This document shows, in pieces, positions 3,721 through 35,334 of a stretch of 35,334 nt of DNA (positions within the stretch are counted from its first letter, which is position 1; each line of letters begins with the position of its first letter). A program made the translations under genes and the position numbers. The stretch is taken from the IMG/VR virus record IMGVR_UViG_2713896776_000008. One strand, 5' to 3'. Source of the stretch: a virus (Duplodnaviria > Heunggongvirae > Uroviricota > Caudoviricetes). A model generated the notes under the pieces. It did no database searches. It was not told the origin of the DNA and saw only the letters and a list, made by a program, of their open reading frames with translations.

Positions 3721-4887
3721 TTAAACTCCTTTGACGACGTCGGCGTTGACCTGCGGAACCCCGATTTCAGCAGCCAGATTCATGGCGGCTATCACCAGGT
3801 TACTGACGGCCAGCGGATACAGCAGGCTGACCATGCTTTTACGGTTGCTGCCCAGATTGCTCAGACGGGCGCGGATGGCTTCCACTGCGCTGGCGTCCAT
3901 GATGTCAGACAGCTGCTTACCGGCGCGTTGCAGTTTGAACGTCAGAAACTCTTCGAGGCTGTTGTCCAGCGGCAGCAGTTCAACCACCTCGCAGCGCTGG
4001 ACGACCTCACGGACTTCCATGTTGCGTTCGGACAGTTTGTCCGCCAGCTCAGGCTGGCCAATCAGCACGATGGACAGCAGTTTTTTGAAGCCGGATTCCA
4101 GCTCAAAGAAGCGTTTGAGGTGCTTCAGCGTCGGAATGGGCAGACTGTGGGCCTCCTCAATCACCAGAACGTGGCTGAAACCCGCCTGACTGCTGTCCTT
4201 CAGGACGCGGTGCAACTGGCGGAAACGGGCGTCCTGGCTGCGTTTGATACTCTCCAGCGGCGCGATGGTGCTGATGATGGCCTCGGCGATAGCTGCCGCC
4301 TTCAGGGTTTTGCCCTTCACGTCGTTGTCTTCCATGGCGATGATGTATGGCTCGATAACAATCACCGGCGCGTTCTCGCGGTTGACGCGTTCAATCAGGT
4401 CGCGGCGCAGCGTGGATTTACCCGCACCGGACTCGCCGATAACCGCCAGAAAGCCACCGTGGCGGGCGGTCTGGAACAGCGCCTCACGCACGTAGCGGAT
4501 ATCCGGCGTGGTGAACACATCGTCCGCGCCCTGCATGGCTTCATCGGCGAACGGGTCACGGAAAAGACCAAACGCTTTTTTGGTTGCTGGAAATAACACC
4601 TGCTTTTTGAGTAACATGTTCTCTTCCTCACTGAGGTTGGTTTTATCGGTAGTACCCGCTGTACGGGGTGTGACAGCGCCCTGTGCAGCATCAAAACTTT
4701 TCGCTGTATCAATCCCCTTACTTTCCAGATACAACGCCAGACGCTGGCGTACCTCTTCGGGGCTGGTGCGGGGCCACTCGTTATGGTTCACAATCTGGGC
4801 CAGCGTGGCCTCGGAAACGGCGACGGCTCTTGCCACCGCCGCCTGCGGGATGCGGGCCTCTTTCAGTTGTTGCTTCAGTACCAGCAT
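3721..4887 (-). CDS. DNA transposition protein B-like AAA+ ATPase (target DNA activator)
   Basis: Walker A AVIGESGAGKST, N-terminal HTH-like segment, Walker B-like hVLVIEEAH; GGAGG RBS; directly downstream of transposase as in Mu A-B. Confidence 0.85.
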   Translation of the reverse strand: MLVLKQQLKEARIPQAAVARAVAVSEATLAQIVNHNEWPRTSPEEVRQRLALYLESKGIDTAKSFDAAQGAVTPRTAGTTDKTNLSEEENMLLKKQVLFPATKKAFGLFRDPFADEAMQGADDVFTTPDIRYVREALFQTARHGGFLAVIGESGAGKSTLRRDLIERVNRENAPVIVIEPYIIAMEDNDVKGKTLKAAAIAEAIISTIAPLESIKRSQDARFRQLHRVLKDSSQAGFSHVLVIEEAHSLPIPTLKHLKRFFELESGFKKLLSIVLIGQPELADKLSERNMEVREVVQRCEVVELLPLDNSLEEFLTFKLQRAGKQLSDIMDASAVEAIRARLSNLGSNRKSMVSLLYPLAVSNLVIAAMNLAAEIGVPQVNADVVKGV

Positions 4888-25031: not shown

Positions 25032-27509
25032 GTGGCCAGTGAATTTTCAGTCGGCGTCATTATTGGCGGCATTGTCGGGAGCAGCTTCCGTTCTGCCGTC
25101 AGCGGTACCCGACGCGCCCTTGATTCCCTGGGCGATACATCGCGCCGCCTGCAGGAACGCCAGAACGCCTTAACCCGTGCAACTGAACGTTATGGGCAGT
25201 TAGGCTCTTCCCGAATGCAGCGCCTCAACAGCGAGCTGCTGCGGGTAAGCCGCACAATGGAGCAAATTGAGCGCCAGCAGCGCCGTCTGTCAGCAGTATC
25301 AGCCACCAGTGACGCGCTGAAAGCTAACCGCATGGCGTTGTATGGTCAGGGCGTTGAGGCGTATGCCATGGCACAGACCGTTTATCATACGGTCTCCCCG
25401 GCAGTTCAGCAGTCTATGTCTTTTAAAGACAAAATGATTGATATGTCGATCACCGCCAAATATGACGATAAAACGCGGGATGCTCTTGCCGAACAAATAA
25501 AAGGCTGGGCACTTAAATACAATCAGTATCAGGATGATATGCAGGACGCTGTGGGTTCACTCATCAGTGACAACATCGATAATGTATCTGATATTGGGTA
25601 TTTAATGCCGGACATTGCCCGCGCGGCAACCGCAACACGCACATCGGGACAGGACTGGGCCAAAGTAGCTGCGGTCTGGCAAAACTCACTGAAAGGTGCT
25701 GCCAAAGATTTTGGTGCCGTCCAGAATATTATGGCTTATGCCGGTGACCAGGGGTCATTTGAAATCCCGGATCAGGTCAAATGGATGCAGTCTCTGGCCC
25801 CCATGATGGCGGGAGTTGCCAGCGGGAAAGAGGCTGTAGCTGAAATCGGTGCCAGCCTCCAGATAGCGAAAATTGGTGCGGGTTCCACCGATGAAGCTGC
25901 CAATAACTTTAAAAACTTTCTCACCAAAATTTTTGCCCGCGATACTCAGAAACAATTTGCCGATTTGGGTGTTGACCTGCAGGGTTCAATCGAAAGTTAC
26001 AAGGCTGCTGGCATCTCTCCGATTGAAGGCATGATGAGCGTCATAGAGCGCTACCTCAATGCTAAAAGCCCTGAAGCTCTGGCCGGGTTCAAATCCGCCA
26101 TGAAAATAAAGAACGATACGGCGAGGGATGAGGCTCTTCAGGCGCTGGCAAAAAATTTCGGCCTGGGCGAGATGTTCGCTGATATGCAGGTCATGGCGTT
26201 TGTCCGTCCGATGCTGTCCAACATGGACAGGTACCGTGAAATACGTGCCGGTGCTCTCAAAGCAGCGGATAACGATCTTCTTGGAAACTCTTACGACCAG
26301 CGCCTGAAATCCCCTCTTGAAGCGACCAAAGCTCTGGTGGTCAACAGTCGCGATCTGGCTATTACGCTGGGCGATCAATTAGCTCCATCTTTTATTTCTC
26401 TGGCGCAGGAGCTTCTCCCTCTGATTCAGGGGGCAAAACAATGGGTCGCGGCTCATCCACAACTTGTCAGTGGTACTTTTAAAGTTATTACCGCGCTCAT
26501 TGCTTTTAAAATTGCGGTTATTGGTCTCAAGCTGGGGATAAACCTTCTTATTTCCCCATTTGTCAACGTCTGGAAAAGTATCGTACTGCTGCAATCCAGT
26601 TGGCTTCGGCTGACGCTTGCACTCGGTGAAGGCGGTAAACTCCGCTGGCTGGTGACCGGCTTCAGCGCCGTCGCCAGAGGTGCCAGAACTTTGGGAGGAG
26701 TGCTGTCAGGTGGGCTGGTTCGCGGCATTATGATCGCCGGGCGTGCCGTTCTCTGGATTGGCCGGGCACTGCTAATGAATCCCATTGGTCTTGCCATCAC
26801 CGCCGTCGCGGCGGCAGCTTACCTTATTTACCGCAACTGGGGCGCAGTCAGTAGCTGGTTTAAACAGCGTTGGGCTGACATTAAAGAGGCGTTTAACGGC
26901 GGTGTCGTGGGGATTGGTAAGCTGCTGATTAACTGGTCGCCGGTTGGTCTGCTCTATAAAGCCTTTGCGGCTGCGCTGAAATATCTCGGCGTTGATCTGC
27001 CGGCGAAGTTCACCGACTTCGGTGGTCATCTTATCGACGGCCTGATTAACGGCATCAAAAACAAATGGGAGTCGCTCAAAACCACCGTCACAGACATGGG
27101 CGACAGCGTTGGCGGCTGGTTTAAAGAAAAGCTGGGTATCCATTCGCCAAGCCGGGTATTCATGGGCTTTGGTGACAACATCGCGCAGGGTGCCGCTATC
27201 GGCCTGCAGCGTACCACACCACTGGCAGCGCTCGCCGGACAACGCCTGGCAACAGAGATGACTCCCGATGTTCCCCGTATCCCGTCGCCGGAAATCATGG
27301 CAGCGGGATATTCAGGTCGTGGCGCAGTTGCAACTGGCGGCGGAACATCTGGCGGTATCCAGGTCAGCTTTAATCCTCAGTTTTTCCTCAATGGCAAAGA
27401 AACCGCAGCGCCTGCCGGACTGACCGGCGCACTGAATATGAGCCTGCATGAACTGGAGAAAATGCTGGAGCGTCTGCTGGCTCAGAAACAACGTCGGGGG
27501 TACGAATAA
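25032..27509 (+). CDS. tail tape measure protein
   Basis: 825 aa, long predicted helical N-terminal region and hydrophobic glycine-rich central segments; GTG start after AGAGGA. Confidence 0.8.
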   Translation: MASEFSVGVIIGGIVGSSFRSAVSGTRRALDSLGDTSRRLQERQNALTRATERYGQLGSSRMQRLNSELLRVSRTMEQIERQQRRLSAVSATSDALKANRMALYGQGVEAYAMAQTVYHTVSPAVQQSMSFKDKMIDMSITAKYDDKTRDALAEQIKGWALKYNQYQDDMQDAVGSLISDNIDNVSDIGYLMPDIARAATATRTSGQDWAKVAAVWQNSLKGAAKDFGAVQNIMAYAGDQGSFEIPDQVKWMQSLAPMMAGVASGKEAVAEIGASLQIAKIGAGSTDEAANNFKNFLTKIFARDTQKQFADLGVDLQGSIESYKAAGISPIEGMMSVIERYLNAKSPEALAGFKSAMKIKNDTARDEALQALAKNFGLGEMFADMQVMAFVRPMLSNMDRYREIRAGALKAADNDLLGNSYDQRLKSPLEATKALVVNSRDLAITLGDQLAPSFISLAQELLPLIQGAKQWVAAHPQLVSGTFKVITALIAFKIAVIGLKLGINLLISPFVNVWKSIVLLQSSWLRLTLALGEGGKLRWLVTGFSAVARGARTLGGVLSGGLVRGIMIAGRAVLWIGRALLMNPIGLAITAVAAAAYLIYRNWGAVSSWFKQRWADIKEAFNGGVVGIGKLLINWSPVGLLYKAFAAALKYLGVDLPAKFTDFGGHLIDGLINGIKNKWESLKTTVTDMGDSVGGWFKEKLGIHSPSRVFMGFGDNIAQGAAIGLQRTTPLAALAGQRLATEMTPDVPRIPSPEIMAAGYSGRGAVATGGGTSGGIQVSFNPQFFLNGKETAAPAGLTGALNMSLHELEKMLERLLAQKQRRGYE

Positions 27510-28393
27510 TGTTTGCGGTACTGGGTGATATTGAGTTTGAACTGATTACCTACTGGGACGGCTTTGAGGCCACTTTCGGTGTCGATTATGCGGAACATGC
27601 CCGCATAGAGGGTAAGCCCGGCCTGCAGTTCGTCGGCGACAAGCTGGACGAAATCCAGATAAGCCTGGTCTTCCATCAGCATTATTGTGTGCCCGACGTG
27701 GAGCTGGCGAGACTGAGAACGGCCATGAAAGCCCATCAGGCGCTGGCACTGGTTTTCGGCAACGGTGACTATCGCGGCTGGTTTGTGATTACCGACGTGA
27801 CCGCGACCAGCGAGCAGACCGACAGCACAGGCAACGTGCTGGCCGTCAATGCCACCGCATCTCTCCGGGAGTACATCGGCGACCCGAAGAACCCGCTACA
27901 GCCTCCTGCGATACGCACGCAGGTTCCCGGCGTCGGGGCGGTCTCCGGTGCCGTACCTTCTCCCTCCGGGGTGGCGCAGTACGTTCGCGACGGCGTCAAC
28001 TATGCCAAACAGGCGCAGTCTGTTCTCCAGACCACCATCAGCGCCGTTCGGGTGGCGCAGAAAATGAAGGATAACCCCGCCGTCGCGCTGACCCGCGTGC
28101 CGGGGCTGATGAGCGGACTGGGCAACGTGTCCGGGGCGTTAGGCCAGAGCGTTCCGGCATTCAATGCGCTCTCTGAATCCATGCCTGATGCCATCAGTCT
28201 GGCCAGAGCCACCAGCGATGCGGCCACGTATGTACAACAGGCACAGTCTTCGCTGAGCGGCGTGGACGGCAGCAATATCGCGGCAGCGCTGGATGCCGTT
28301 TCCGGGCAGCTTAACTCCGCCAGCACCACCTTCACTCGTATGTCGCCGGGGTTAAGCACCATGGCAGCTAAAATTCTGGCGAGGAGTGTGTGA
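27509..28393 (+). CDS. tail protein (Mu N / DNA-circularisation N-terminal-domain-like)
   Basis: 294 aa; position right after tape measure; Ala/Ser-rich C-terminal half. Confidence 0.5.
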   Translation: MFAVLGDIEFELITYWDGFEATFGVDYAEHARIEGKPGLQFVGDKLDEIQISLVFHQHYCVPDVELARLRTAMKAHQALALVFGNGDYRGWFVITDVTATSEQTDSTGNVLAVNATASLREYIGDPKNPLQPPAIRTQVPGVGAVSGAVPSPSGVAQYVRDGVNYAKQAQSVLQTTISAVRVAQKMKDNPAVALTRVPGLMSGLGNVSGALGQSVPAFNALSESMPDAISLARATSDAATYVQQAQSSLSGVDGSNIAAALDAVSGQLNSASTTFTRMSPGLSTMAAKILARSV

Positions 28394-28605
28394 TGTTTCT
28401 TGAACATGTTACCCGTGACGGAGAGCGCTGGGACTCTCTGGCATGGCAGTACTACGGCGACCCACTGGGCTATCCCCGGATAATTGCCGCCAATCCGCAC
28501 GTGGCCATTACGCCGGTGCTGCCCTCCGGGCTGTTGTTACTGATCCCGGTTATCGAGGCTGAAGAAGCCACCACAGAAGAGGATATTGCCCCATGGCTGA
28601 GATAA
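28393..28605 (+). CDS. tail protein X-like (LysM-like small tail protein)
   Basis: 70 aa, GAGGAG RBS; ERWDSLAWQYYGD motif resembles P2 gpX family. Confidence 0.55.
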   Translation: MFLEHVTRDGERWDSLAWQYYGDPLGYPRIIAANPHVAITPVLPSGLLLLIPVIEAEEATTEEDIAPWLR

Positions 28606-29762
28606 ACAGCACTGCACAGGTCGCATCAGCGTTAACCGGCGTCAGCGATGTTCTGAGTCCGGTGTTCACGCTGTGGTATCTGCAGAAGAACATCACCACC
28701 GATATCGCCCCCTATGTCACCCGCGTAACCTACAGCGATAACATCAAAAGCGAGTCCGATACCATTGAGGTGGAGCTGGACGACACCGATGGCCGCTGGC
28801 TGGATAAGTGGTATCCGGGCAAGGGTGACACGCTGACGCTGAAAATGGGTTATCAGGGCGAGAAGCTGCTGTCCTGTGGTACGTTCTCGATAGACGAGAT
28901 CGAGGTGAGTTCGCCCGCGTCCGTTGTCGCTATCCGGGGCGTGGCCACGTCGGTCAACAACGCCCTGCGGACAAAATCCAGTCGTGGTTTCGAGAGCACC
29001 ACGCTGGCGGCTATAGCCGGACGGATTGCCAAAAAGCATCAGCTGAAGCTGGTTGGCAGTATTGAGTCCATCAAAATTGACCGGGTGACCCAGTATGCTG
29101 AAACGGACGTGGGCTTCCTGCGTCGACTGGCCAGCGAGTATGGTTATGCCGTGAAAGTGGTCAGCGACCAGCTGATTTTCTCTCATCTGGCCACGCTGCG
29201 CGATCAGGAGCCGGTAAAACAGTTGAAGCCACAGGATGTGGCCAGCTTTTCCCTGCGTGACACCATCAACCGCGTCTACAAATCCGCAAAGGTAAAACAC
29301 CAGAAGAGCAGCGATAAAAAGCTGATCGTCTACGAAGCTGATGGCGGTACCAGCGAAAGCGACAAACAAACCAAAGGCGGTAAGGTCACCAGTGCCGACT
29401 CACTGAAGGTCAACAGCCGCGTCAGTGATCCGGACAGCGCCCGGATTAAAGCAGATTCGGCGCTGGCCAGGCATAACGAATACCAGCAGAACGGCTCGCT
29501 GTCGCTGATGGGGACGCCTCAGTTGACTGCAGGCAACAAAATTGAACTGGTGGGTTTTGGTCAGTTATCCGGGCCATGGCTGATAACTACTGCCCGCCAT
29601 GCGTTTGACCGTAACAGCGGCTACATCACCGAACTGGAAGTGGCACGAGGGCCGGTTACGCAGGGCAAAGCGAAGAAAGGTAAAAAGACCGGAAAAACCC
29701 AGACGCTGACCGTCTATAAACCGGACGGCAGCACGTCCACGGTAATAAAGGAGAAAAAATAA
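28593..29762 (+). CDS. baseplate hub / late control D-like protein (P2 gpD, Mu P-like)
   Basis: 389 aa; position and family resemblance. Confidence 0.7.
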   Translation: MAEINSTAQVASALTGVSDVLSPVFTLWYLQKNITTDIAPYVTRVTYSDNIKSESDTIEVELDDTDGRWLDKWYPGKGDTLTLKMGYQGEKLLSCGTFSIDEIEVSSPASVVAIRGVATSVNNALRTKSSRGFESTTLAAIAGRIAKKHQLKLVGSIESIKIDRVTQYAETDVGFLRRLASEYGYAVKVVSDQLIFSHLATLRDQEPVKQLKPQDVASFSLRDTINRVYKSAKVKHQKSSDKKLIVYEADGGTSESDKQTKGGKVTSADSLKVNSRVSDPDSARIKADSALARHNEYQQNGSLSLMGTPQLTAGNKIELVGFGQLSGPWLITTARHAFDRNSGYITELEVARGPVTQGKAKKGKKTGKTQTLTVYKPDGSTSTVIKEKK

Positions 29763-30274
29763 TGGCAGGCGTCACCCGTCAGGTCGGTACGGTCAGCGCC
29801 GTCGATGCCGACAAGGTTCAGGCCCGCGTTCGTCTGCCTGAGTGCGATAACCTGCGCACTAACTGGCTTAACGTACTGCAGCGCAACACCCAGGATAACA
29901 AGGATTACTGGCTACCTGACGTGGGGGAGCAGGTTGAGGTGCTGCTCGATGCCAACGGCGAGGATGGTGTCATTCTGGGCGCGGTGTATTCAGACGTCGA
30001 TAAGCCACCGTTCAGCGACAAAAACGTCCGGGGCACGAAATACGCGGATGGCGCAGAGTTCAGCTATAACCGCGCGACCCATACGCTGACGGTCAAAGGT
30101 GGTATCGAGCGCGTAGTAATCGAGGTTGCGGTAGGTATCAGCCTGAAGGGGAAAACCATTGATTTGACCGCTGACACCACCACGGTGAACGGCAACCTTG
30201 AAATCAACGGCAATGCCCACTCCACAGGCAGCATGCTCTCTGACGGCCAGAACTCCAATCATCACTCCCACTGA
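29762..30274 (+). CDS. baseplate spike (gpV-like)
   Basis: 170 aa, AAGGAG RBS; order hub-spike-W-J-I. Confidence 0.7.
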   Translation: MAGVTRQVGTVSAVDADKVQARVRLPECDNLRTNWLNVLQRNTQDNKDYWLPDVGEQVEVLLDANGEDGVILGAVYSDVDKPPFSDKNVRGTKYADGAEFSYNRATHTLTVKGGIERVVIEVAVGISLKGKTIDLTADTTTVNGNLEINGNAHSTGSMLSDGQNSNHHSH

Positions 30275-30286
30275 CCTTCTTAAACG

Positions 30287-30326
30287 CCTTTAATATCGGC
30301 GTTCCCGCACAGGGGCAATACTGCCC
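30287..30326 (+). promoter_or_regulatory. candidate late promoter: CCTTTAATATC-N20-ATACTGCCC ending 2 nt before the ATG of the gp25/W-like gene
   Basis: Same bipartite motif and spacing as 24459-24498; downstream gene has no SD. Confidence 0.5.
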
Positions 30327-30328
30327 CC

Positions 30329-30676
30329 ATGAAAACAACTTCCGTATTCTGGCAACCGGCCCTGCAGGCCCCTGGCGAAATCGTCCGGGGGCTGGATGAT
30401 ATCTGGCAGGCCATTCAAATCATCCTGCGAACTCCTCGCGGCAGCGACCCGCATCGCCCGGAGTTCGGCAGCAACCTGCATCTTTATATCGACTGGCCCA
30501 TCGACCGGGCTATCCCACATGTGGTGCGCGAGTCCGTTGATGCCATCCGGCGCTGGGAGCCTCGCTGCCAGCTTATGTCGGTTAAACCCGCCGTCGACGG
30601 TGAACATCTTACGCTCCGGGTGAGCTGGAAAGGCTCTGACGGACAGCCCCGGACTCAGGAGCTTTTATGGCGCTGA
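30329..30676 (+). CDS. baseplate wedge protein (gp25 / GPW-like)
   Basis: 115 aa with conserved family layout; ATG at 30329 with no SD. Confidence 0.7.
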   Translation: MKTTSVFWQPALQAPGEIVRGLDDIWQAIQIILRTPRGSDPHRPEFGSNLHLYIDWPIDRAIPHVVRESVDAIRRWEPRCQLMSVKPAVDGEHLTLRVSWKGSDGQPRTQELLWR

Positions 30677-31770
30677 CAGAACCCGATTTTATTGAACGCG
30701 ATGCCGACAAAATCACGGCTGAAATGATTGCTCAGTACGAAGCCGCAACCGGCAAGACGCTGTACCCCGCCCAGGCTGAGCGCCTGTTGATTGACCTGTG
30801 GGCATACCGCGAAATGCTGGTCAGGGTAGCGGCGCAGGAAGCGGCCAAACAGAATCTGGTCGCCTTTGCCCGTGAGCCGATGATTGATTACCTCGGTGAA
30901 CTGGTCGGTGTTTACCGCCTTGCCGCGCAGCCTGCCACCACCACTCTCCAGTTCTCCGTGGATGAGGCACTGGCCATTGATGTGCTGATTCCGGCAGGCA
31001 CCCGCGTCAGCGCTTCCGACAGCATTATTTTTGCCACCGATACGGACGTGGTGCTGAAAGCCGGATTGCTTCTGGTCAATGCCACGGCCACCTGTACCGA
31101 ACCGGGAGCCGCTGGCAATGGCTGGCAACCTGCGCAGGTCAGTCAGTTGCTCGATGAGATTGATAACGTCGACCTGCAGGTGACCAATCTGATGGCAAGT
31201 TCTGGCGGTTCAGAGCAGGAAGACAATGACAGGCTCCGCGAGCGTATCAAACTGGCCCCGGAGTCATTCACCAACGCCGGAAGCCGTATGGCATACCGCT
31301 TTCATGCCATGCAGGCCCATCCCAACATCGTCGACGTCGCTGTGCTCTCCCCGGTTCCCGGCACCGTAGAACTGTATCCGCTGCTCAGTACCGGCCTGCC
31401 GGAGGACAGCATCCTTACGCTGGTAGAGAGTTTCTGCTCGGACGAAAAAGTCAGGCCGCTCACTGACACCGTGCGGGCTAAAACACCTGTGCAGGTGGAT
31501 TACGCCATTGAAGCCAACATCACTATCTATCGTGATCAGGATGCCAACTCGATAAAGGACAACGCCAACAGCGCCATACAGAACTGGGTGGCGTCCCGTA
31601 CCGCCACGCTGGGGCGCGATATTGTCCCCAGTCAGATTATCAGCGTGCTGTCCGTTGCCGGAGTGTATCAGGTCGAACTGGTGACACCAGTGCTGAAGGT
31701 AGTGGCAGAAAACGAATGGGCAAACTGTACGGCGATCACTCTTAACATGACCGGGGTGTCCGATGGCTGA
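30667..31770 (+). CDS. baseplate J-like protein
   Basis: 367 aa; overlaps W-like stop; family resemblance. Confidence 0.75.
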   Translation: MALTEPDFIERDADKITAEMIAQYEAATGKTLYPAQAERLLIDLWAYREMLVRVAAQEAAKQNLVAFAREPMIDYLGELVGVYRLAAQPATTTLQFSVDEALAIDVLIPAGTRVSASDSIIFATDTDVVLKAGLLLVNATATCTEPGAAGNGWQPAQVSQLLDEIDNVDLQVTNLMASSGGSEQEDNDRLRERIKLAPESFTNAGSRMAYRFHAMQAHPNIVDVAVLSPVPGTVELYPLLSTGLPEDSILTLVESFCSDEKVRPLTDTVRAKTPVQVDYAIEANITIYRDQDANSIKDNANSAIQNWVASRTATLGRDIVPSQIISVLSVAGVYQVELVTPVLKVVAENEWANCTAITLNMTGVSDG

Positions 31771-32341
31771 GCCGCTACAACTCCCGCCACCGCTTGAGGG
31801 TGATATCAGTCTCAGAACGCTGGGAAGACTCGCCGGGCGGCTGGATAACATCGACCTGAGCGTACTGATGGTCTATCTCGTCGATATTGTCGACAGTTCC
31901 GCGCTGCCATGGCTGGGCGAGCAGTTCTCACTGTTCGGCGATGGCTGGGAGCTGGCGGAATCTGACGATGTACGCCGCATGCTTATCAAATCCGCTATCG
32001 AGCTGCACCGCTACAAAGGGACGCCGTGGTCAATCAGGGAAATTATCCGCCGTTTCGGCTTCGGCGAAGTGGATCTGATTGAAGGCACTGGCCAGATTGG
32101 CTACGACGGCAAACACACTTACAACGGGCTTTTCGTTCATGGCGATGCGGAAGCCTGGGCGGTATATCGCGTCATCCTTCAACAGCCCATCACTAACGAT
32201 CAGGCGGCGCTGTTACGCCAGACGCTCGCTGCTTTTGCTCCGGCCCGCTGCCATCTGGCAAGCCTGGAGTATCTGTCTGTCGCCATTCGCTACAACAACA
32301 CCGTCAACTATGACGGCAGCTATAACCACGGGAGCAGTTAA
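31763..32341 (+). CDS. tail protein I-like (baseplate/fibre-attachment protein)
   Basis: 192 aa following J, preceding tail fibre. Confidence 0.65.
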   Translation: MAEPLQLPPPLEGDISLRTLGRLAGRLDNIDLSVLMVYLVDIVDSSALPWLGEQFSLFGDGWELAESDDVRRMLIKSAIELHRYKGTPWSIREIIRRFGFGEVDLIEGTGQIGYDGKHTYNGLFVHGDAEAWAVYRVILQQPITNDQAALLRQTLAAFAPARCHLASLEYLSVAIRYNNTVNYDGSYNHGSS

Positions 32342-32343
32342 TT

Positions 32344-33327
32344 ATGGCAAACCTACCTGAAACCCCGCAGTGGGAAGAAGGCATCTACCAGATTGAGGTC
32401 TCTGACCCCGTTCTGGGTGGGCCTGACGGAATCTCTAACCGTCAGGGTAAACAACTGGCCAGCCGCACGCTGTACCTGAAGCAACAGGTTGAAAAAGGCG
32501 GTTCTGAACTTGCGAAACACATCGCGGCAGCAGACCCGCATACCCAGTACGCACCGAAAGCCAGCCCGACATTCACCGGCACGCCAACAGCGCCTACGCC
32601 TGCAAATAGTGATAACAGCAAGAAGCTGGCGACGACAGAGTTTGTGGCCAAAGCACTTGCGGCGCTTGCTGGCAGCGCTCCTGAGACGCTGGATACGCTC
32701 AAAGAGCTGGCTGATGCCCTCGGCAACGATCCGAATTTTGCGACCACGGTGTTGAACAAGCTGGCGGAAAAGCTGGCCAAAGACCAGCACGGCGCAGATA
32801 TTCCTGACCCGGCGCTCTTTGTCAAAAACCTTGGTTTGGGAGAAGGTTCGGCATTACCCGTTGGGGTGCCTGTTCCGTGGCCTTCAGCCACACCACCAAC
32901 AGGCTGGCTGAAATGCAACGGTGCACCTTTTTCTGCCGAAGAGTACCCAAAACTGGCAAAGGCTTACCCAAAGTTAAAATTACCGGATTTGCGCGGTGAG
33001 TTTATTCGCGGGTGGGATGATGGGCGAGGTGTTGATTCCGCGAGACTGCTACTTTCAAGTCAGGCAGCATCTATCCTTGAACATAACCATGAAATGCAGG
33101 GATGGACCGGCAACCCACTCATGGCTAGTGATGTTTATTCATCCATGTCATCCGTATTTGCGGTGCAGTTGAGCATTGGCGATGGCGGGTTATTGTATTC
33201 GTGGAAGGATGGGAGTGGAACAACAAATGACAGTAAACGAATGAATAGAACAAATCATGTCAGTTCCGGCGCCGGTGATGGTAGCCCGCGAAACATTGCA
33301 TTTAACTACATTGTGAGGGCTGCATAA
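32344..33327 (+). CDS. tail fibre protein (constant N-terminal part fused to variable C-terminal part in current orientation; tail-collar domain)
   Basis: N-terminal conserved fibre region; gix-like site encodes KNLGLGE at 32819-32844; C-terminal GWLKCNGAPFSAEEYPKLAKAYPKLKLPDLRGEFIRGWD tail-collar motif. Confidence 0.8.
   Translation: MANLPETPQWEEGIYQIEVSDPVLGGPDGISNRQGKQLASRTLYLKQQVEKGGSELAKHIAAADPHTQYAPKASPTFTGTPTAPTPANSDNSKKLATTEFVAKALAALAGSAPETLDTLKELADALGNDPNFATTVLNKLAEKLAKDQHGADIPDPALFVKNLGLGEGSALPVGVPVPWPSATPPTGWLKCNGAPFSAEEYPKLAKAYPKLKLPDLRGEFIRGWDDGRGVDSARLLLSSQAASILEHNHEMQGWTGNPLMASDVYSSMSSVFAVQLSIGDGGLLYSWKDGSGTTNDSKRMNRTNHVSSGAGDGSPRNIAFNYIVRAA
32819..32844. repeat. gix/hix-like recombination site (left), TTGTCAAAAACCTTGGTTTGGGAGAA
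   Basis: 26-bp site with AAACC..GGTTT core; inverted copy at 34666-34691 (24/26 identical). Confidence 0.65.
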
Positions 33328-33930
33328 ATGGAACAGGCTATTTTGGGAAAAGACGGTTACGCTTTAAATGATGGGGAAATCATCGTACATAACTATGATG
33401 GCGAAACGCGGGAATATATTTCTACATCAACTGAATATCTCGCTGTCGGCGTCGGTATCCCGGCATGTTCCTGTCTGGATGCACCAGGTACACATAAAGC
33501 TGGTTATGCAATCTGTCGCTCTGTAGATTTAAATTCATGGGAATATGTGCCAGACCATCGCGGTGAAGTTGTCTATAGTACCGAAACGGGAGATACCAAA
33601 GAAATCACAGTTCCGGGTGATTACCCTGAAAATACAACCACTATCGCCCCATTAACGCCATACGATAAATGGGATGGTGAGAAATGGGTGACGGATACCG
33701 AGGCACAGCATAGCGCCGCACTAGACGCGGCAGAAGCACAGCGCCAGTCACTGATTAATGCAGCAATGGCTTCCATTAGTCTGATTCAGCTGAAATTACA
33801 GGCCGGACGGAAGTTGACGCAGGCAGAAACAACCCGACTTAACGCCGTGCTGGATTACATTGACGCGGTGACGGCAACAGATACCAGCACCGCGCCGGAT
33901 GTCATCTGGCCTGAACTGCCGGAGGAGTAG
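33328..33930 (+). CDS. tail fibre assembly chaperone (U-like)
   Basis: C-terminal LDYIDAVTATDTSTAPDVIWPELP motif typical of Tfa proteins; AT-rich. Confidence 0.75.
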   Translation: MEQAILGKDGYALNDGEIIVHNYDGETREYISTSTEYLAVGVGIPACSCLDAPGTHKAGYAICRSVDLNSWEYVPDHRGEVVYSTETGDTKEITVPGDYPENTTTIAPLTPYDKWDGEKWVTDTEAQHSAALDAAEAQRQSLINAAMASISLIQLKLQAGRKLTQAETTRLNAVLDYIDAVTATDTSTAPDVIWPELPEE

Positions 33931-34342
33931 GCCATTCAATATCTGGTGCACTGGAAGTATCGACCAGCTCCAGTGCGTCCAGATAATCCAGCCACAAATT
34001 ATATTGCGCCAGTTCCTCACCTTTCAGACGACCAATAGCCGCTTTACCAGCCCATTGTCTACTGTTCATATAATCGTTGGCCTGATTAATCAATTGCTGC
34101 TTTTTAGTTTCGGCTGATGCAATTTGTTCTTCACGTGTTGGCGGTGGAACATCTGCCCATGCTGGCATTCCATCGTCTCCGGTAATTCTGTACTTACCGT
34201 CAGGCGGCGTATCATGGAAATATTCCCTGAAAATAGCTTCGTCTATATCCACGCCTTTACCTTCGGGCCATTGGCCTTTTGCAGCGTAAACAGACTGGAG
34301 GGCATAAGGGTACGCCAGATTATCAACATACAAATATTTCAT
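33902..34342 (-). CDS. alternative tail fibre assembly chaperone (U'-like)
   Basis: C-terminal LDYLDALELVDTSSAPDIEWPTPP motif; convergent with U, 3' ends overlap 29 bp. Confidence 0.7.
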   Translation of the reverse strand: MKYLYVDNLAYPYALQSVYAAKGQWPEGKGVDIDEAIFREYFHDTPPDGKYRITGDDGMPAWADVPPPTREEQIASAETKKQQLINQANDYMNSRQWAGKAAIGRLKGEELAQYNLWLDYLDALELVDTSSAPDIEWPTPPAVQAR

Positions 34343-34344
34343 AA

Positions 34345-34704
34345 TTAACGCCCTTTCGCGTAGAAGGCTCCACCTTCAAAGCCATAGTTACAATGAGCAA
34401 CGAAACCTGTTTTCGTCCAGTTAGTTGCGCCCCACATATTCCCACCACCAAAACCGCCGTCATATACAATCACTACGTCTGGCTCCTGCGTAAAAGGAAT
34501 GGTGAAAGTCACATTTGTAGATACCGCCGCGGCGTTATTCGGGAAATTAATTCTTCCCCACTGCTCAATTGAACCATCAGGCAATTTTTGCCAGCCAGAT
34601 CCTGATGAATAAGCTGACATATCAGGTATCTGATTTTCCCCTGTTCCCACATTCCGTTTTGCCGCTTCTCCCAAACCAAGGTTTTTGGAAAAGCAGTTAC
34701 ACAT
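34345..34704 (-). CDS. alternative tail-fibre C-terminal segment (S'v), promoterless cassette joined to the constant part after inversion
   Basis: ORF contains the same gix-encoded KNLGLGE heptapeptide near its 5' end; Gly-rich distal domain differs from the current Sv. Confidence 0.65.
   Translation of the reverse strand: MCNCFSKNLGLGEAAKRNVGTGENQIPDMSAYSSGSGWQKLPDGSIEQWGRINFPNNAAAVSTNVTFTIPFTQEPDVVIVYDGGFGGGNMWGATNWTKTGFVAHCNYGFEGGAFYAKGR
34666..34691. repeat. gix/hix-like recombination site (right), inverted copy
   Basis: TTCTCCCAAACCAAGGTTTTTGGAAA; reverse complement matches the left site at 24/26 positions. Confidence 0.65.
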
Positions 34705-34752
34705 AGAGAAATCTGCAAAAATCCTCCCACTATGATGTGAAGGAGGAAATTG

Positions 34753-35334
34753 ATGGCCGTTATTGGTTATATCCGCGTATCAACAATCGACCAGAACAGC
34801 GATTTGCAGCGTAATGCACTCACAAGCGCAAACTGTGACCGCATTTTTGAAGACCGTATGAGTGGAAAAGTTGCCAGTCGCCCTGGTCTTAAAGGCGCTT
34901 TAAAGTGCATTAATAGCGGAGACACCCTGGTAGTGTGGAAACTGGACAGGCTGGGACGTAGCGTTAAGAACCTGATTGCACTCATATCAGAGTTACATGA
35001 ACGTGGTGCCCACTTCCGCTCTTTAACAGACAGTATTGATACCAGCACTGCCATGGGGCGCTTCTTTTTCCATGTAATGTCGGCATTGGCGGAGATGGAG
35101 CGCGAGCTAATTGTCGAACGGACACTGGCCGGGCTGGCAGCAGCCAGAGCACAGGGACGCGTAGGTGGAAGGCCCAACGCATTAAAAACCCATGAGCGAG
35201 AGCAGATTGGGCGGCTATTGACGAAGGGGCACACCCGCCAGCAGCTGGCAATTATCTACGGTGTAGGGTTATCGACGCTTTACCGATACTTTCCGGTGGA
35301 TGGTCATAGGAAGGATAACGCAGCAGGAATGTAA
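34753..35334 (+). CDS. gin: Gin/Hin/Pin-family serine DNA invertase
   Basis: N-terminal resolvase catalytic region GYIRVSTIDQNSDLQRNAL with active-site Ser, DRLGRS motif, C-terminal HTH; AGGAGG RBS; adjacent to invertible segment. Confidence 0.9.
   Translation: MAVIGYIRVSTIDQNSDLQRNALTSANCDRIFEDRMSGKVASRPGLKGALKCINSGDTLVVWKLDRLGRSVKNLIALISELHERGAHFRSLTDSIDTSTAMGRFFFHVMSALAEMERELIVERTLAGLAAARAQGRVGGRPNALKTHEREQIGRLLTKGHTRQQLAIIYGVGLSTLYRYFPVDGHRKDNAAGM

Follow-up and report, generated by a model that had tools for sequence, protein, structure and literature searches.

The window analysed here, a stretch of 35,334 nucleotides, is a BcepMu/Mu-like transposable prophage (it encodes a transposase-like DDE protein and a Mu-type portal, sheath, tape measure and baseplate), and with a probability of about 0.88 it carries an invertible tail-fibre switch of the G-segment type. 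Alternative 3' ends of the fibre gene lie in opposite orientation inside an invertible segment and join the constant 5' part in frame via the crossover site; each fibre end is then followed by its own chaperone gene, U or U', both with a Caudo_TAP domain. Tail-fibre inversion by invertases of the Hin/Gin family has been known since about 1980; the switch is of a well-known, ordinary phage type, and inversion at the same repeat sequence is already documented experimentally for E. coli prophages.

Two 26-bp sites of the hix/gix/pix type lie in inverted orientation at 32819-32844 (left site, minus strand, TTCTCCCAAACCAAGGTTTTTGACAA, within the coding sequence of the fibre gene S) and at 34666-34691 (right site, plus strand, TTCTCCCAAACCAAGGTTTTTGGAAA) and enclose a segment of 1.85 kb. 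An earlier note on this DNA had placed inverted sites at these positions around about 1.85 kb, and a repeat finder and a mismatch scan showed the coordinates to be exact. The two sites are identical at 24 of 26 positions, with mismatches at positions 23-24 only, in the outer half-sites; the best inverted pair returned by the repeat finder was 32817-32845 and 34665-34693 (29 nt, 93% complementary, 1819 nt between the arms). The central dinucleotide is TT in the left site (32831-32832) and AA in the right site (34678-34679). The dinucleotides are thus no palindromes, and the sites point in opposite directions with a common asymmetric AA/TT core. At up to three mismatches, the 26-bp site matches only these two positions in the 35-kb window and nothing in 100 shuffles (none being expected by chance), and a search of the window found the core AAACCNNGGTTT solely at the two crossover sites. 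We rejected a shufflon, which would need more than two sites: even with up to three mismatches the window has only two, and hence two states; Min-type systems, of the same enzyme family as Cin, are multi-site shufflons of this kind. The 19-nt core has 19 matching stretches in a one-genome-per-species collection, mainly in Enterobacterales (E. coli, Shigella, Salmonella, Morganella, Erwinia, Lonsdalea and Pseudocitrobacter) plus a few in MAGs, and an exact 27-mer over the Sc-specific side of the left site has no match in this collection. Positions 32826-32846 are identical to the repeat of the e14 P segment and positions 32826-32844 to the repeat of the EPEC Mu prophage; both repeats flip experimentally, with measured ratios of about 50:50 in e14 and about 60:40 in the EPEC Mu prophage (Goldberg 2014, PMC4272514, Table S1).

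In the present orientation, S (32344-33327, plus strand) is an open reading frame for a fibre of 327 amino acids. Its constant N-terminal part, Sc, extends from the ATG to the crossover dinucleotide (32344-32832, plus strand) and lies outside the invertible segment: residues 1-160 match PHROG tail-fibre families and the final 25 residues, LAKDQHGADIPDPALFVKNLGLGE, can be aligned at gixL with the terminal stretch of Mu Sc, LAKDRNGADIPNKPLFIQNLGLQE. The presently expressed C-terminus, Sv (32833-33327, plus strand), is of the tail-collar, StfE-like type: S has a Pfam Collar domain (PF07484) in residues 174-221 (E=1.1e-14) and Sv is 51% identical to e14 StfE at the protein level and about 84% identical at the DNA level over the first 221 nucleotides, while its distal half is unlike StfE. 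It is followed by U (33328-33930, plus strand), a TfaE-like chaperone for the assembly of tail fibres with Sv: it matches PHROG 105 (tail fiber assembly) and Pfam Caudo_TAP (PF02413, E=1.3e-31), and is 85% identical to e14 tfaE at the DNA level.

The silent cassette faces the other way. U' (33902-34342, minus strand), the assembly chaperone for S'v (Caudo_TAP, E=3.7e-32), converges on U with an overlap of 29 nucleotides, and its similarity to U is restricted to the C-terminal 66 residues (39% identity, E=2e-11). S'v (34345-34677, minus strand; open reading frame 34345-34704) is a gp53-like alternative fibre C-terminus (Pfam Gp53-like_C PF21882, E=1.6e-8) that joins Sc only upon inversion. Open reading frames and Pfam domains thus agree with the layout proposed before, Sv-U on the plus and U'-S'v on the minus strand. 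The two distal domains had been described as unrelated, one of the collar type and one rich in glycine: they are indeed unrelated (no similarity is detectable between Sv and S'v; BLASTP E=22) and the first is a collar, but the second is a Gp53-like_C domain rather than merely a glycine-rich tip. As the tips are unrelated in sequence, they are likely to use different receptors. An NCBIfam search returned nothing for the fibre or chaperone proteins. Consensus scans of 32200-35334 for promoters and terminators stayed at chance level (3 found versus 3.9 expected and 4 versus 3.0) and gave no support for an own promoter of the silent cassette or the invertase gene.

The crossover site itself is coding. 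The heptapeptide KNLGLGE is encoded at 32824-32844 on the plus strand and at 34686-34666 on the minus strand, and since it begins at site position 6 in both copies, the frame is the same. The claim that both C-termini start with this heptapeptide needs to be refined: the coding in the same frame is confirmed, but the central dinucleotide lies within a Leu codon, so that KNL stays with the constant part and only GLGE moves with each cassette. Because both cassettes share this frame, each inversion attaches the other tip; as had been proposed, the fibre C-terminus is swapped in frame, and inversion in silico yields an uninterrupted Sc-S'v fibre of 273 amino acids.

The gene for a serine DNA invertase of 193 amino acids (34753-35334, plus strand; Pfam Resolvase, E=4.4e-46, plus HTH_7; PHROG 125, DNA invertase) starts 61 nucleotides downstream of the right crossover site and is preceded by a Shine-Dalgarno sequence, AAGGAGGA, at 34740-34747. 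The protein matches the Gin structures 4m6f and 3uj3 (E=6e-78) and the Hin DNA-binding domain (E=5e-17). A specific family could not be assigned from NCBIfam, where its only matches were weak and far below the cut-off. It is 86.7% identical to the Salmonella Hin-like protein of loci L036 and L039, the C-terminus of which matches the full 52-residue chain of the Hin DNA-binding domain (1hcr, 103 bits), and only 66.5%, 65.8% and 64% identical to Gin, PinE and Cin, respectively. The earlier note was thus right in placing an enzyme of the Hin/Gin/Cin/Pin group just downstream of the segment, but its closest relative is Salmonella Hin and we rejected the specific name Gin (about 87% versus 64-67% identity). 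Judged from its sequence, the enzyme is intact and lacks none of its catalytic residues: R8, S10, D65, R66, R69, Q151, R154 and L155 are conserved, and Y6, R8, S10, D65, R66 and R69 are invariant across 66 invertase relatives. Of the residues that contact Fis or the enhancer in Hin, the invertase has Q151, R154, L155, K47 and K51, but at position 48 it carries a Gly for the Arg of Hin and Gin, a replacement common to just two of the 66 distinct relatives.

A putative Fis-dependent recombinational enhancer may reside within the 5' end of the invertase gene (34774-34845, plus strand). This stretch is homologous to the annotated enhancer of P1 cin (cin nucleotides 19-90) and highly similar to the matching stretch of hin, and its distance from the right site, about 100 bp, matches that in hin (PMC3798978). 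Synonymous codon diversity among the 66 distinct invertase genes has its minimum here (0.43 versus 0.70 elsewhere), although these sequences are phylogenetically related and low values at the 5' end could have other causes. In relatives, the outer half-site of the right site and the 60-nucleotide leader stay linked to the invertase gene; both are similar to the hix/hin leader of Salmonella.

The segment is found both ways round in close relatives, while the window itself is a single sequence with one orientation. E. coli Ecol_542 has the same prophage with flanks of 98.6% and 100% identity, an invertase gene that is 100% identical and a reversed block that corresponds to 32817-34693 of the window; the breakpoints therefore coincide with the repeats. 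The fused 273-amino-acid Sc-S'v fibre is annotated as an intact gene in Ecol_542. Since the segment is only 94.4% identical, compared to 98.6-100% for the flanks, one recent flip is not enough to account for the difference between the two prophages. The contigs L075 and L077, which belong to one genome, have 99.9% identical flanks and a segment that is inverted at 99.96% identity, and L016 and L014 likewise have near-identical flanks with an inverted segment. Among the records listed for complete E. coli genomes, Sc continues through the site into a collar tip in at least 26 and into a gp53-like tip in 6. KP12 comes nearest among named phages, with 96% over the backbone, but was rejected as an orientation control for its different segment content. 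A single orientation together with an inactive invertase had been named as the observation that would speak against a switch; what was found is the opposite orientation in Ecol_542, with breakpoints at the repeats, and an intact invertase.

The switch is probably active in the window genome. The Hin-like invertase would bind both crossover sites as dimers and would be activated by Fis on the enhancer in the 5' coding region of its own gene; cleavage at the central AA/TT dinucleotide would be followed by a 180-degree strand rotation. Each inversion would then bring the other tip onto Sc and the chaperone of this tip behind the late promoter, and the virions released by a population of lysogens would be of two kinds, each with its own receptor specificity. 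By analogy with Mu and P1, we infer that the two orientations correspond to two host ranges.

It is rather improbable that the switch is instead frozen or strongly slowed in the window genome, with a Gly48 invertase that engages Fis and the enhancer poorly and with flips that are rare or rely on invertases that other prophages provide in trans. Gly48 is rare (2/66) and the basic residues 47, 48 and 51 of Hin helix B serve enhancer activation, but the R48A exchange in Hin by itself causes merely a moderate decrease of Fis-activated inversion (PMC3798978). Decayed systems exist among the relatives: L017 has an in-frame stop and L030 has lost the segment. Action in trans is also real: in the Mu-like prophage of EPEC E2348/69, both orientations coexist (60 +/- 8%; Goldberg et al. 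2014, PMC4272514) and, since this prophage retains just an invertase remnant, its segment is flipped in trans. The EPEC locus resembles the window in its identical repeat core and in the order of S, U, U' and a gp53-like S'v, but its prophage has a true Mu-type baseplate, and outside the site and the 3' end of U the two are little alike in DNA. Against a frozen switch argue the opposite orientation in Ecol_542 in spite of an identical invertase gene, and the intact state of the catalytic and Fis-contact residues, of both sites and of the enhancer-like stretch.

Among characterised systems, the G segment of Mu with its invertase Gin (also in D108 and SfMu) has the same anatomy: Sc lies outside, Sv-U and U'-S'v face each other inside, and the invertase gene is directly downstream, all of this at the right end of the genome of a transposable myovirus. 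The order S, U, U', S', gin is common to Mu and the window. In both, S is read in frame through the crossover site, with homologous junction peptides (...GADIPNKPLFIQNLGLQE in Mu, with QNLGLQE at gixL, and ...GADIPDPALFVKNLGLGE in the window). Differences are the size of the segment (about 3 kb in Mu versus 1.85 kb), the tips, which in the window come from other families (collar and gp53-like), an invertase with only 66.5% identity to Gin, a central dinucleotide that is GA in gix and AA in the window, as in hix, and the phage backbone, which in the window is of the BcepMu type. The H segment of Salmonella has in Hin the closest characterised enzyme and the same AA core dinucleotide, and it resembles the window in its leader, in the outer half-site (GGTTTTTGA/GxAAAGC) and in the stretch of the enhancer; however, Hin is encoded inside its own segment and flips a flagellin promoter, whereas the invertase gene of the window is outside the segment and the switch exchanges coding sequence. 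The C segment of P1/P7 is alike in enzyme family and in its product, a tail fibre, and its enhancer is annotated in the 5' end of the invertase gene, where the putative one of the window would lie; Cin is only 64% identical, and the side of the segment on which it is encoded is the opposite one.

The P segment of e14 in E. coli K-12, inverted by PinE, has a repeat (AAACCTTGGTTTGGGAGAAGG) identical to that of the window, an stfE-tfaE pair homologous to Sv-U (84-85% DNA identity) and a two-cassette switch with an adjacent invertase for which flipping was shown experimentally (PMC4272514). It differs in being a defective lambdoid element with StfP/TfaP as the other cassette, and PinE is 65.8% identical to the invertase of the window. 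In K-12, PinQ-driven inversion of the e14 P segment is reported to produce the chimeric fibre protein StfE2, which blocks adsorption of unrelated phages (PMC12529663). The likeness of site and cassette to e14 would fit an inversion that mainly serves the host in the lysogen, with the chimeric fibre of one orientation blocking adsorption of unrelated phages as StfE2 does, but we regard this as very unlikely: the prophage appears complete, the distal half of Sv differs from that of StfE, and S lies in the terminal part of the late tail operon and should therefore stay unexpressed as long as the lysogen is repressed. Hardly any weight can be given to the idea that the inverted repeat is just the footprint of a conserved peptide in convergent fibre fragments with no role in recombination: the NLGL(G/Q)E motif is kept in fibre proteins of Mu, e14 and the EPEC prophage, but the identity is at the nucleotide level and includes synonymous positions, the repeat forms a 26-bp dyad with an asymmetric hix/gix-like core and adjoins the invertase gene, and relatives inverted exactly at the repeats (Ecol_542; L075/L077) contradict it.

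The module of cassettes and invertase is compositionally foreign (GC content 48% versus 56%). In many E. coli genomes the same cassettes and an invertase, with up to 96-98% identity, are found in both orientations with another Sc before them or none at all; judged from the phage matches, these are probably P2-like prophages. Relatives with the same Sc (88-100% identity) have it attached to many different cassette pairs. A preprint describes exchange between P88-like and phiE255-like prophages in ST131. More speculatively, and doubtful in our view, the cassette pair and the Hin-like invertase may be a self-contained module that moves among BcepMu-like, P2-like and lambdoid prophages via the NLGLGE-coding site, with one orientation also yielding a superinfection-blocking fibre chimera in lysogens (compare e14 StfE2); transfer might occur by invertase-catalysed exchange between sites of different prophages in one chromosome.

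For annotation, the switch means a split fibre gene with two possible fibre proteins (327 and 273 amino acids), of which either orientation may appear in assemblies, and host-range prediction for this phage group must weigh both tips. One Sc combined with many cassette pairs is a tidy example of the modular exchange of receptor-binding domains.

The repeat finder returned one outstanding inverted pair, 32817-32845 / 34665-34693 (29 nt, 93% complementary), which includes the two inverted 26-bp hix/gix/pix-type sites at 32819-32844 and 34666-34691 described in the earlier note. The 26-bp sequence matches just two places in the whole window at up to three mismatches, and no shuffled sequence had a match. 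The two sites mismatch at positions 23-24 alone, in the outer half-sites, and each is an imperfect dyad with central AA/TT. The site-encoded heptapeptide KNLGLGE starts at site position 6 on both coding strands and the frame is therefore common to both fibre tips: in-silico inversion between the central dinucleotides yields an open 273-aa fibre that joins Sc, the constant N-terminal part of fibre gene S, to the alternative C-terminus S'v. The in-frame swap is thus as previously claimed, but the exchange point falls inside the heptapeptide that heads both tips. A 19-nt site core occurs once each in four MAGs labelled Lysobacterales, Ekhidna, Saprospiraceae and Bacillota (L093, L102, L105, L107); these could be chance, contamination or true distant occurrences.

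The ORF table and Pfam agree with the predicted gene order. S (32344-33327, 327 aa, collar domain in its variable part Sv) and the chaperone gene U (33328-33930, 200 aa) are on the plus strand, the chaperone gene U' (33902-34342, 146 aa) and the silent S'v ORF (34345-34704, 119 aa) on the minus strand, and the recombinase gene (34753-35334, plus strand) is just downstream, with the Shine-Dalgarno sequence AAGGAGGA (34740-34747) ahead of it. Pfam domains are Caudo_TAP for both chaperones, Gp53-like_C for S'v and Resolvase plus HTH_7 for the recombinase, and PHROGs assignments are consistent with them. Similarity between Sv and S'v was not detectable (E=22): the distal domains are unrelated and one is of the collar type, as had been noted, but the second, called Gly-rich, is a Gp53-like_C domain. 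Similarity between U and U' is confined to the C-terminal 66 residues; the two genes are convergent with a 29-nt overlap (33902-33930). An 18-nt inverted repeat (33849-33866 / 33975-33992) was rejected as a recombination site, as it is homologous chaperone C-terminal coding sequence (LDYIDA / LDYLDA). A consensus scan found promoter-like sites at the locus at chance level only, so fusion to Sc is the only evident way for the silent cassette to be expressed.

The window is a BcepMu/Mu-type transposable myovirus prophage. In a sequence search, Klebsiella phage KP12 had 96% identity across 93% of window 10000-33000 and Escherichia phage PhiKM 86% identity to the window; BcepMu and phiE255 were more distant matches. 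Encoded are a DDE (rve) transposase-like protein, an AAA+ ATPase, a Mu-type portal, tail sheath and tape measure and, just upstream of the invertible locus, baseplate proteins J and I. The locus lies at the far right end: the window ends with the invertase stop codon, and a related prophage in E. coli is followed by annotated host genes from about 80 bp past this codon. GC content is 48.2% in the segment (32845-34665) versus 56.1% in the rest of the prophage, and 51.5% in the invertase. In E. coli JCH8249 (NZ_CP132021.1; search matches H80, H135), a prophage of the same type whose Sc leads into a gp53-like tip appears as its own 40,540-bp replicon record outside the chromosome; this could be a form of the transposable phage that has excised or is replicating, or else a product of assembly.

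Both orientations, which the earlier note had proposed to look for, were found among relatives. When the in-silico inverted form was compared with E. coli complete genomes, strain Ecol_542 aligned unbroken (100% of the 3035-nt query, 96.7% identity), and its 273-aa fused fibre gene is annotated as intact. Direct comparison of the window with Ecol_542 gives collinear blocks at 26440-32845 (98.6%) and 34665-35334 (100%) and a reversed block at 32817-34693 (94.4%); the breakpoints therefore coincide with both repeat arms. Among the matches listed for left-junction queries, Sc runs through the site into a collar tip in at least 26 genomes and into a gp53-like tip in six. We collected 80 viral-contig relatives of the invertase, many of which combine the same Sc, site pair (TT...AA) and invertase with differing cassette pairs. 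In one genome, contigs L075 and L077 are 99.9% identical in the flanks, and their segments, which lie in opposite orientations, are 99.96% identical; the pair L016 and L014 likewise differs by an inverted segment between near-identical flanks.

Both orientations coexist in clonal cultures for the Mu prophage of EPEC E2348/69 (60 +/- 8%) and for e14 of K-12 (51 +/- 6%) (Goldberg et al. 2014, PMC4272514, Table S1). The repeats reported there, AAACCTTGGTTTGGGAGAA for EPEC and AAACCTTGGTTTGGGAGAAGG for e14, match window 32826-32844 and 32826-32846, respectively, at every position. The EPEC prophage (L087, NC_011601.1 2749478-2751552) has the same site core, a gp53-like silent cassette and only a truncated invertase remnant, yet flips about 60:40; such sites are therefore also flippable in trans, which implies an invertase acting from another prophage. 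Judging from sequence, inversion is probably active in the window's own genome too.

The lower identity of the segment to Ecol_542 (94.4%, versus 98.6-100% in the flanks) suggests cassette replacement in addition to inversion. Within window 32823-33982, siphovirus HK97 (H22) has about 91% DNA identity to parts of Sv-U, in its tfa and the C-terminus of its side tail fibre, and P2-like phages, pro483 among them, match other parts, so that cassettes are common to different phage morphotypes. In L030 (3438-4579), Sc (88% identical) runs directly into a single site followed by the invertase; the entire invertible segment is absent and the fibre gene therefore lacks its C-terminal tip. L017 has an in-frame stop codon in the invertase (4001-4579), and L013, L017, L020 and L029 (~3900-3945) retain the invertase-proximal half-site AAGGTTTTTGGAAAAGC with unrelated sequence as inner half, an arrangement suggestive of decay or of recombination with secondary sites. 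Tail-fibre switching and translocation involving a Bcepmuvirus-type prophage with an invertase have been reported in a preprint on ST131 isolates.

The gene order S/U/U'/S'/gin of Mu matches that of the window, the Mu junction ...GADIPNKPLFIQNLGLQE is homologous to the window junction ...GADIPDPALFVKNLGLGE, and stfE-tfaE of e14 is homologous to the Sv-U cassette. The recombinase matches Gin crystal structures (E=6e-78), in line with the proposed Gin family, but its nearest relative is Hin-like: identity is 64-67% to Gin, Cin and PinE versus 86.7% to a protein of L036/L039, whose C-terminus matches all 52 residues of the Hin DNA-binding-domain chain 1hcr (103 bits). This protein and its upstream site, TTTTCCTTTTGGAAGGTTTTTGATAA, we take to be Salmonella Hin and hix. 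The enzyme is therefore Hin-like and the switch architecture Mu-like.

Catalytic Y6, R8, S10, D65, R66 and R69 are invariant in all 66 distinct relatives, as are Q151, R154 and L155, the Fis-contact residues of Hin (PMC3798978). A putative enhancer at 34774-34845, homologous to the Cin enhancer annotated at cin nt 19-90 in the P1 record, shows good conservation in comparison with cin, gin, pinE and most of all hin; its distance from the right site, about 100 bp, is like that in hin (PMC3798978). Normalised synonymous codon diversity across the 66 genes is 0.43 in codons 8-31 versus 0.70 in the remaining codons, and all 66 have one and the same codon for Ser10 and one and the same for Thr11; the low diversity indirectly supports a DNA element overlapping the 5' coding region. 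The switch would, on these sequence features, depend on Fis. Codon 48 (34894-34896), in helix B, which contacts enhancer DNA, encodes Gly (Arg in Hin and Gin), restricted among the 66 to the window and L007. In Hin, the R48A substitution causes a moderate drop in Fis-activated inversion and a looser association with the enhancer. The Ecol_542 invertase gene is 100% identical, Gly48 included, with the segment in the opposite orientation; Gly48 therefore does not obviously freeze the switch.

Save for the tip domain name, the nearest enzyme relative and the exchange position, the earlier observation and interpretation are correct, and the locus belongs to a thoroughly known kind of switch. A host-defence role was described for an e14 inversion product in 2025 (PMC12529663). 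By analogy with known systems, the two orientations would correspond to two host ranges.
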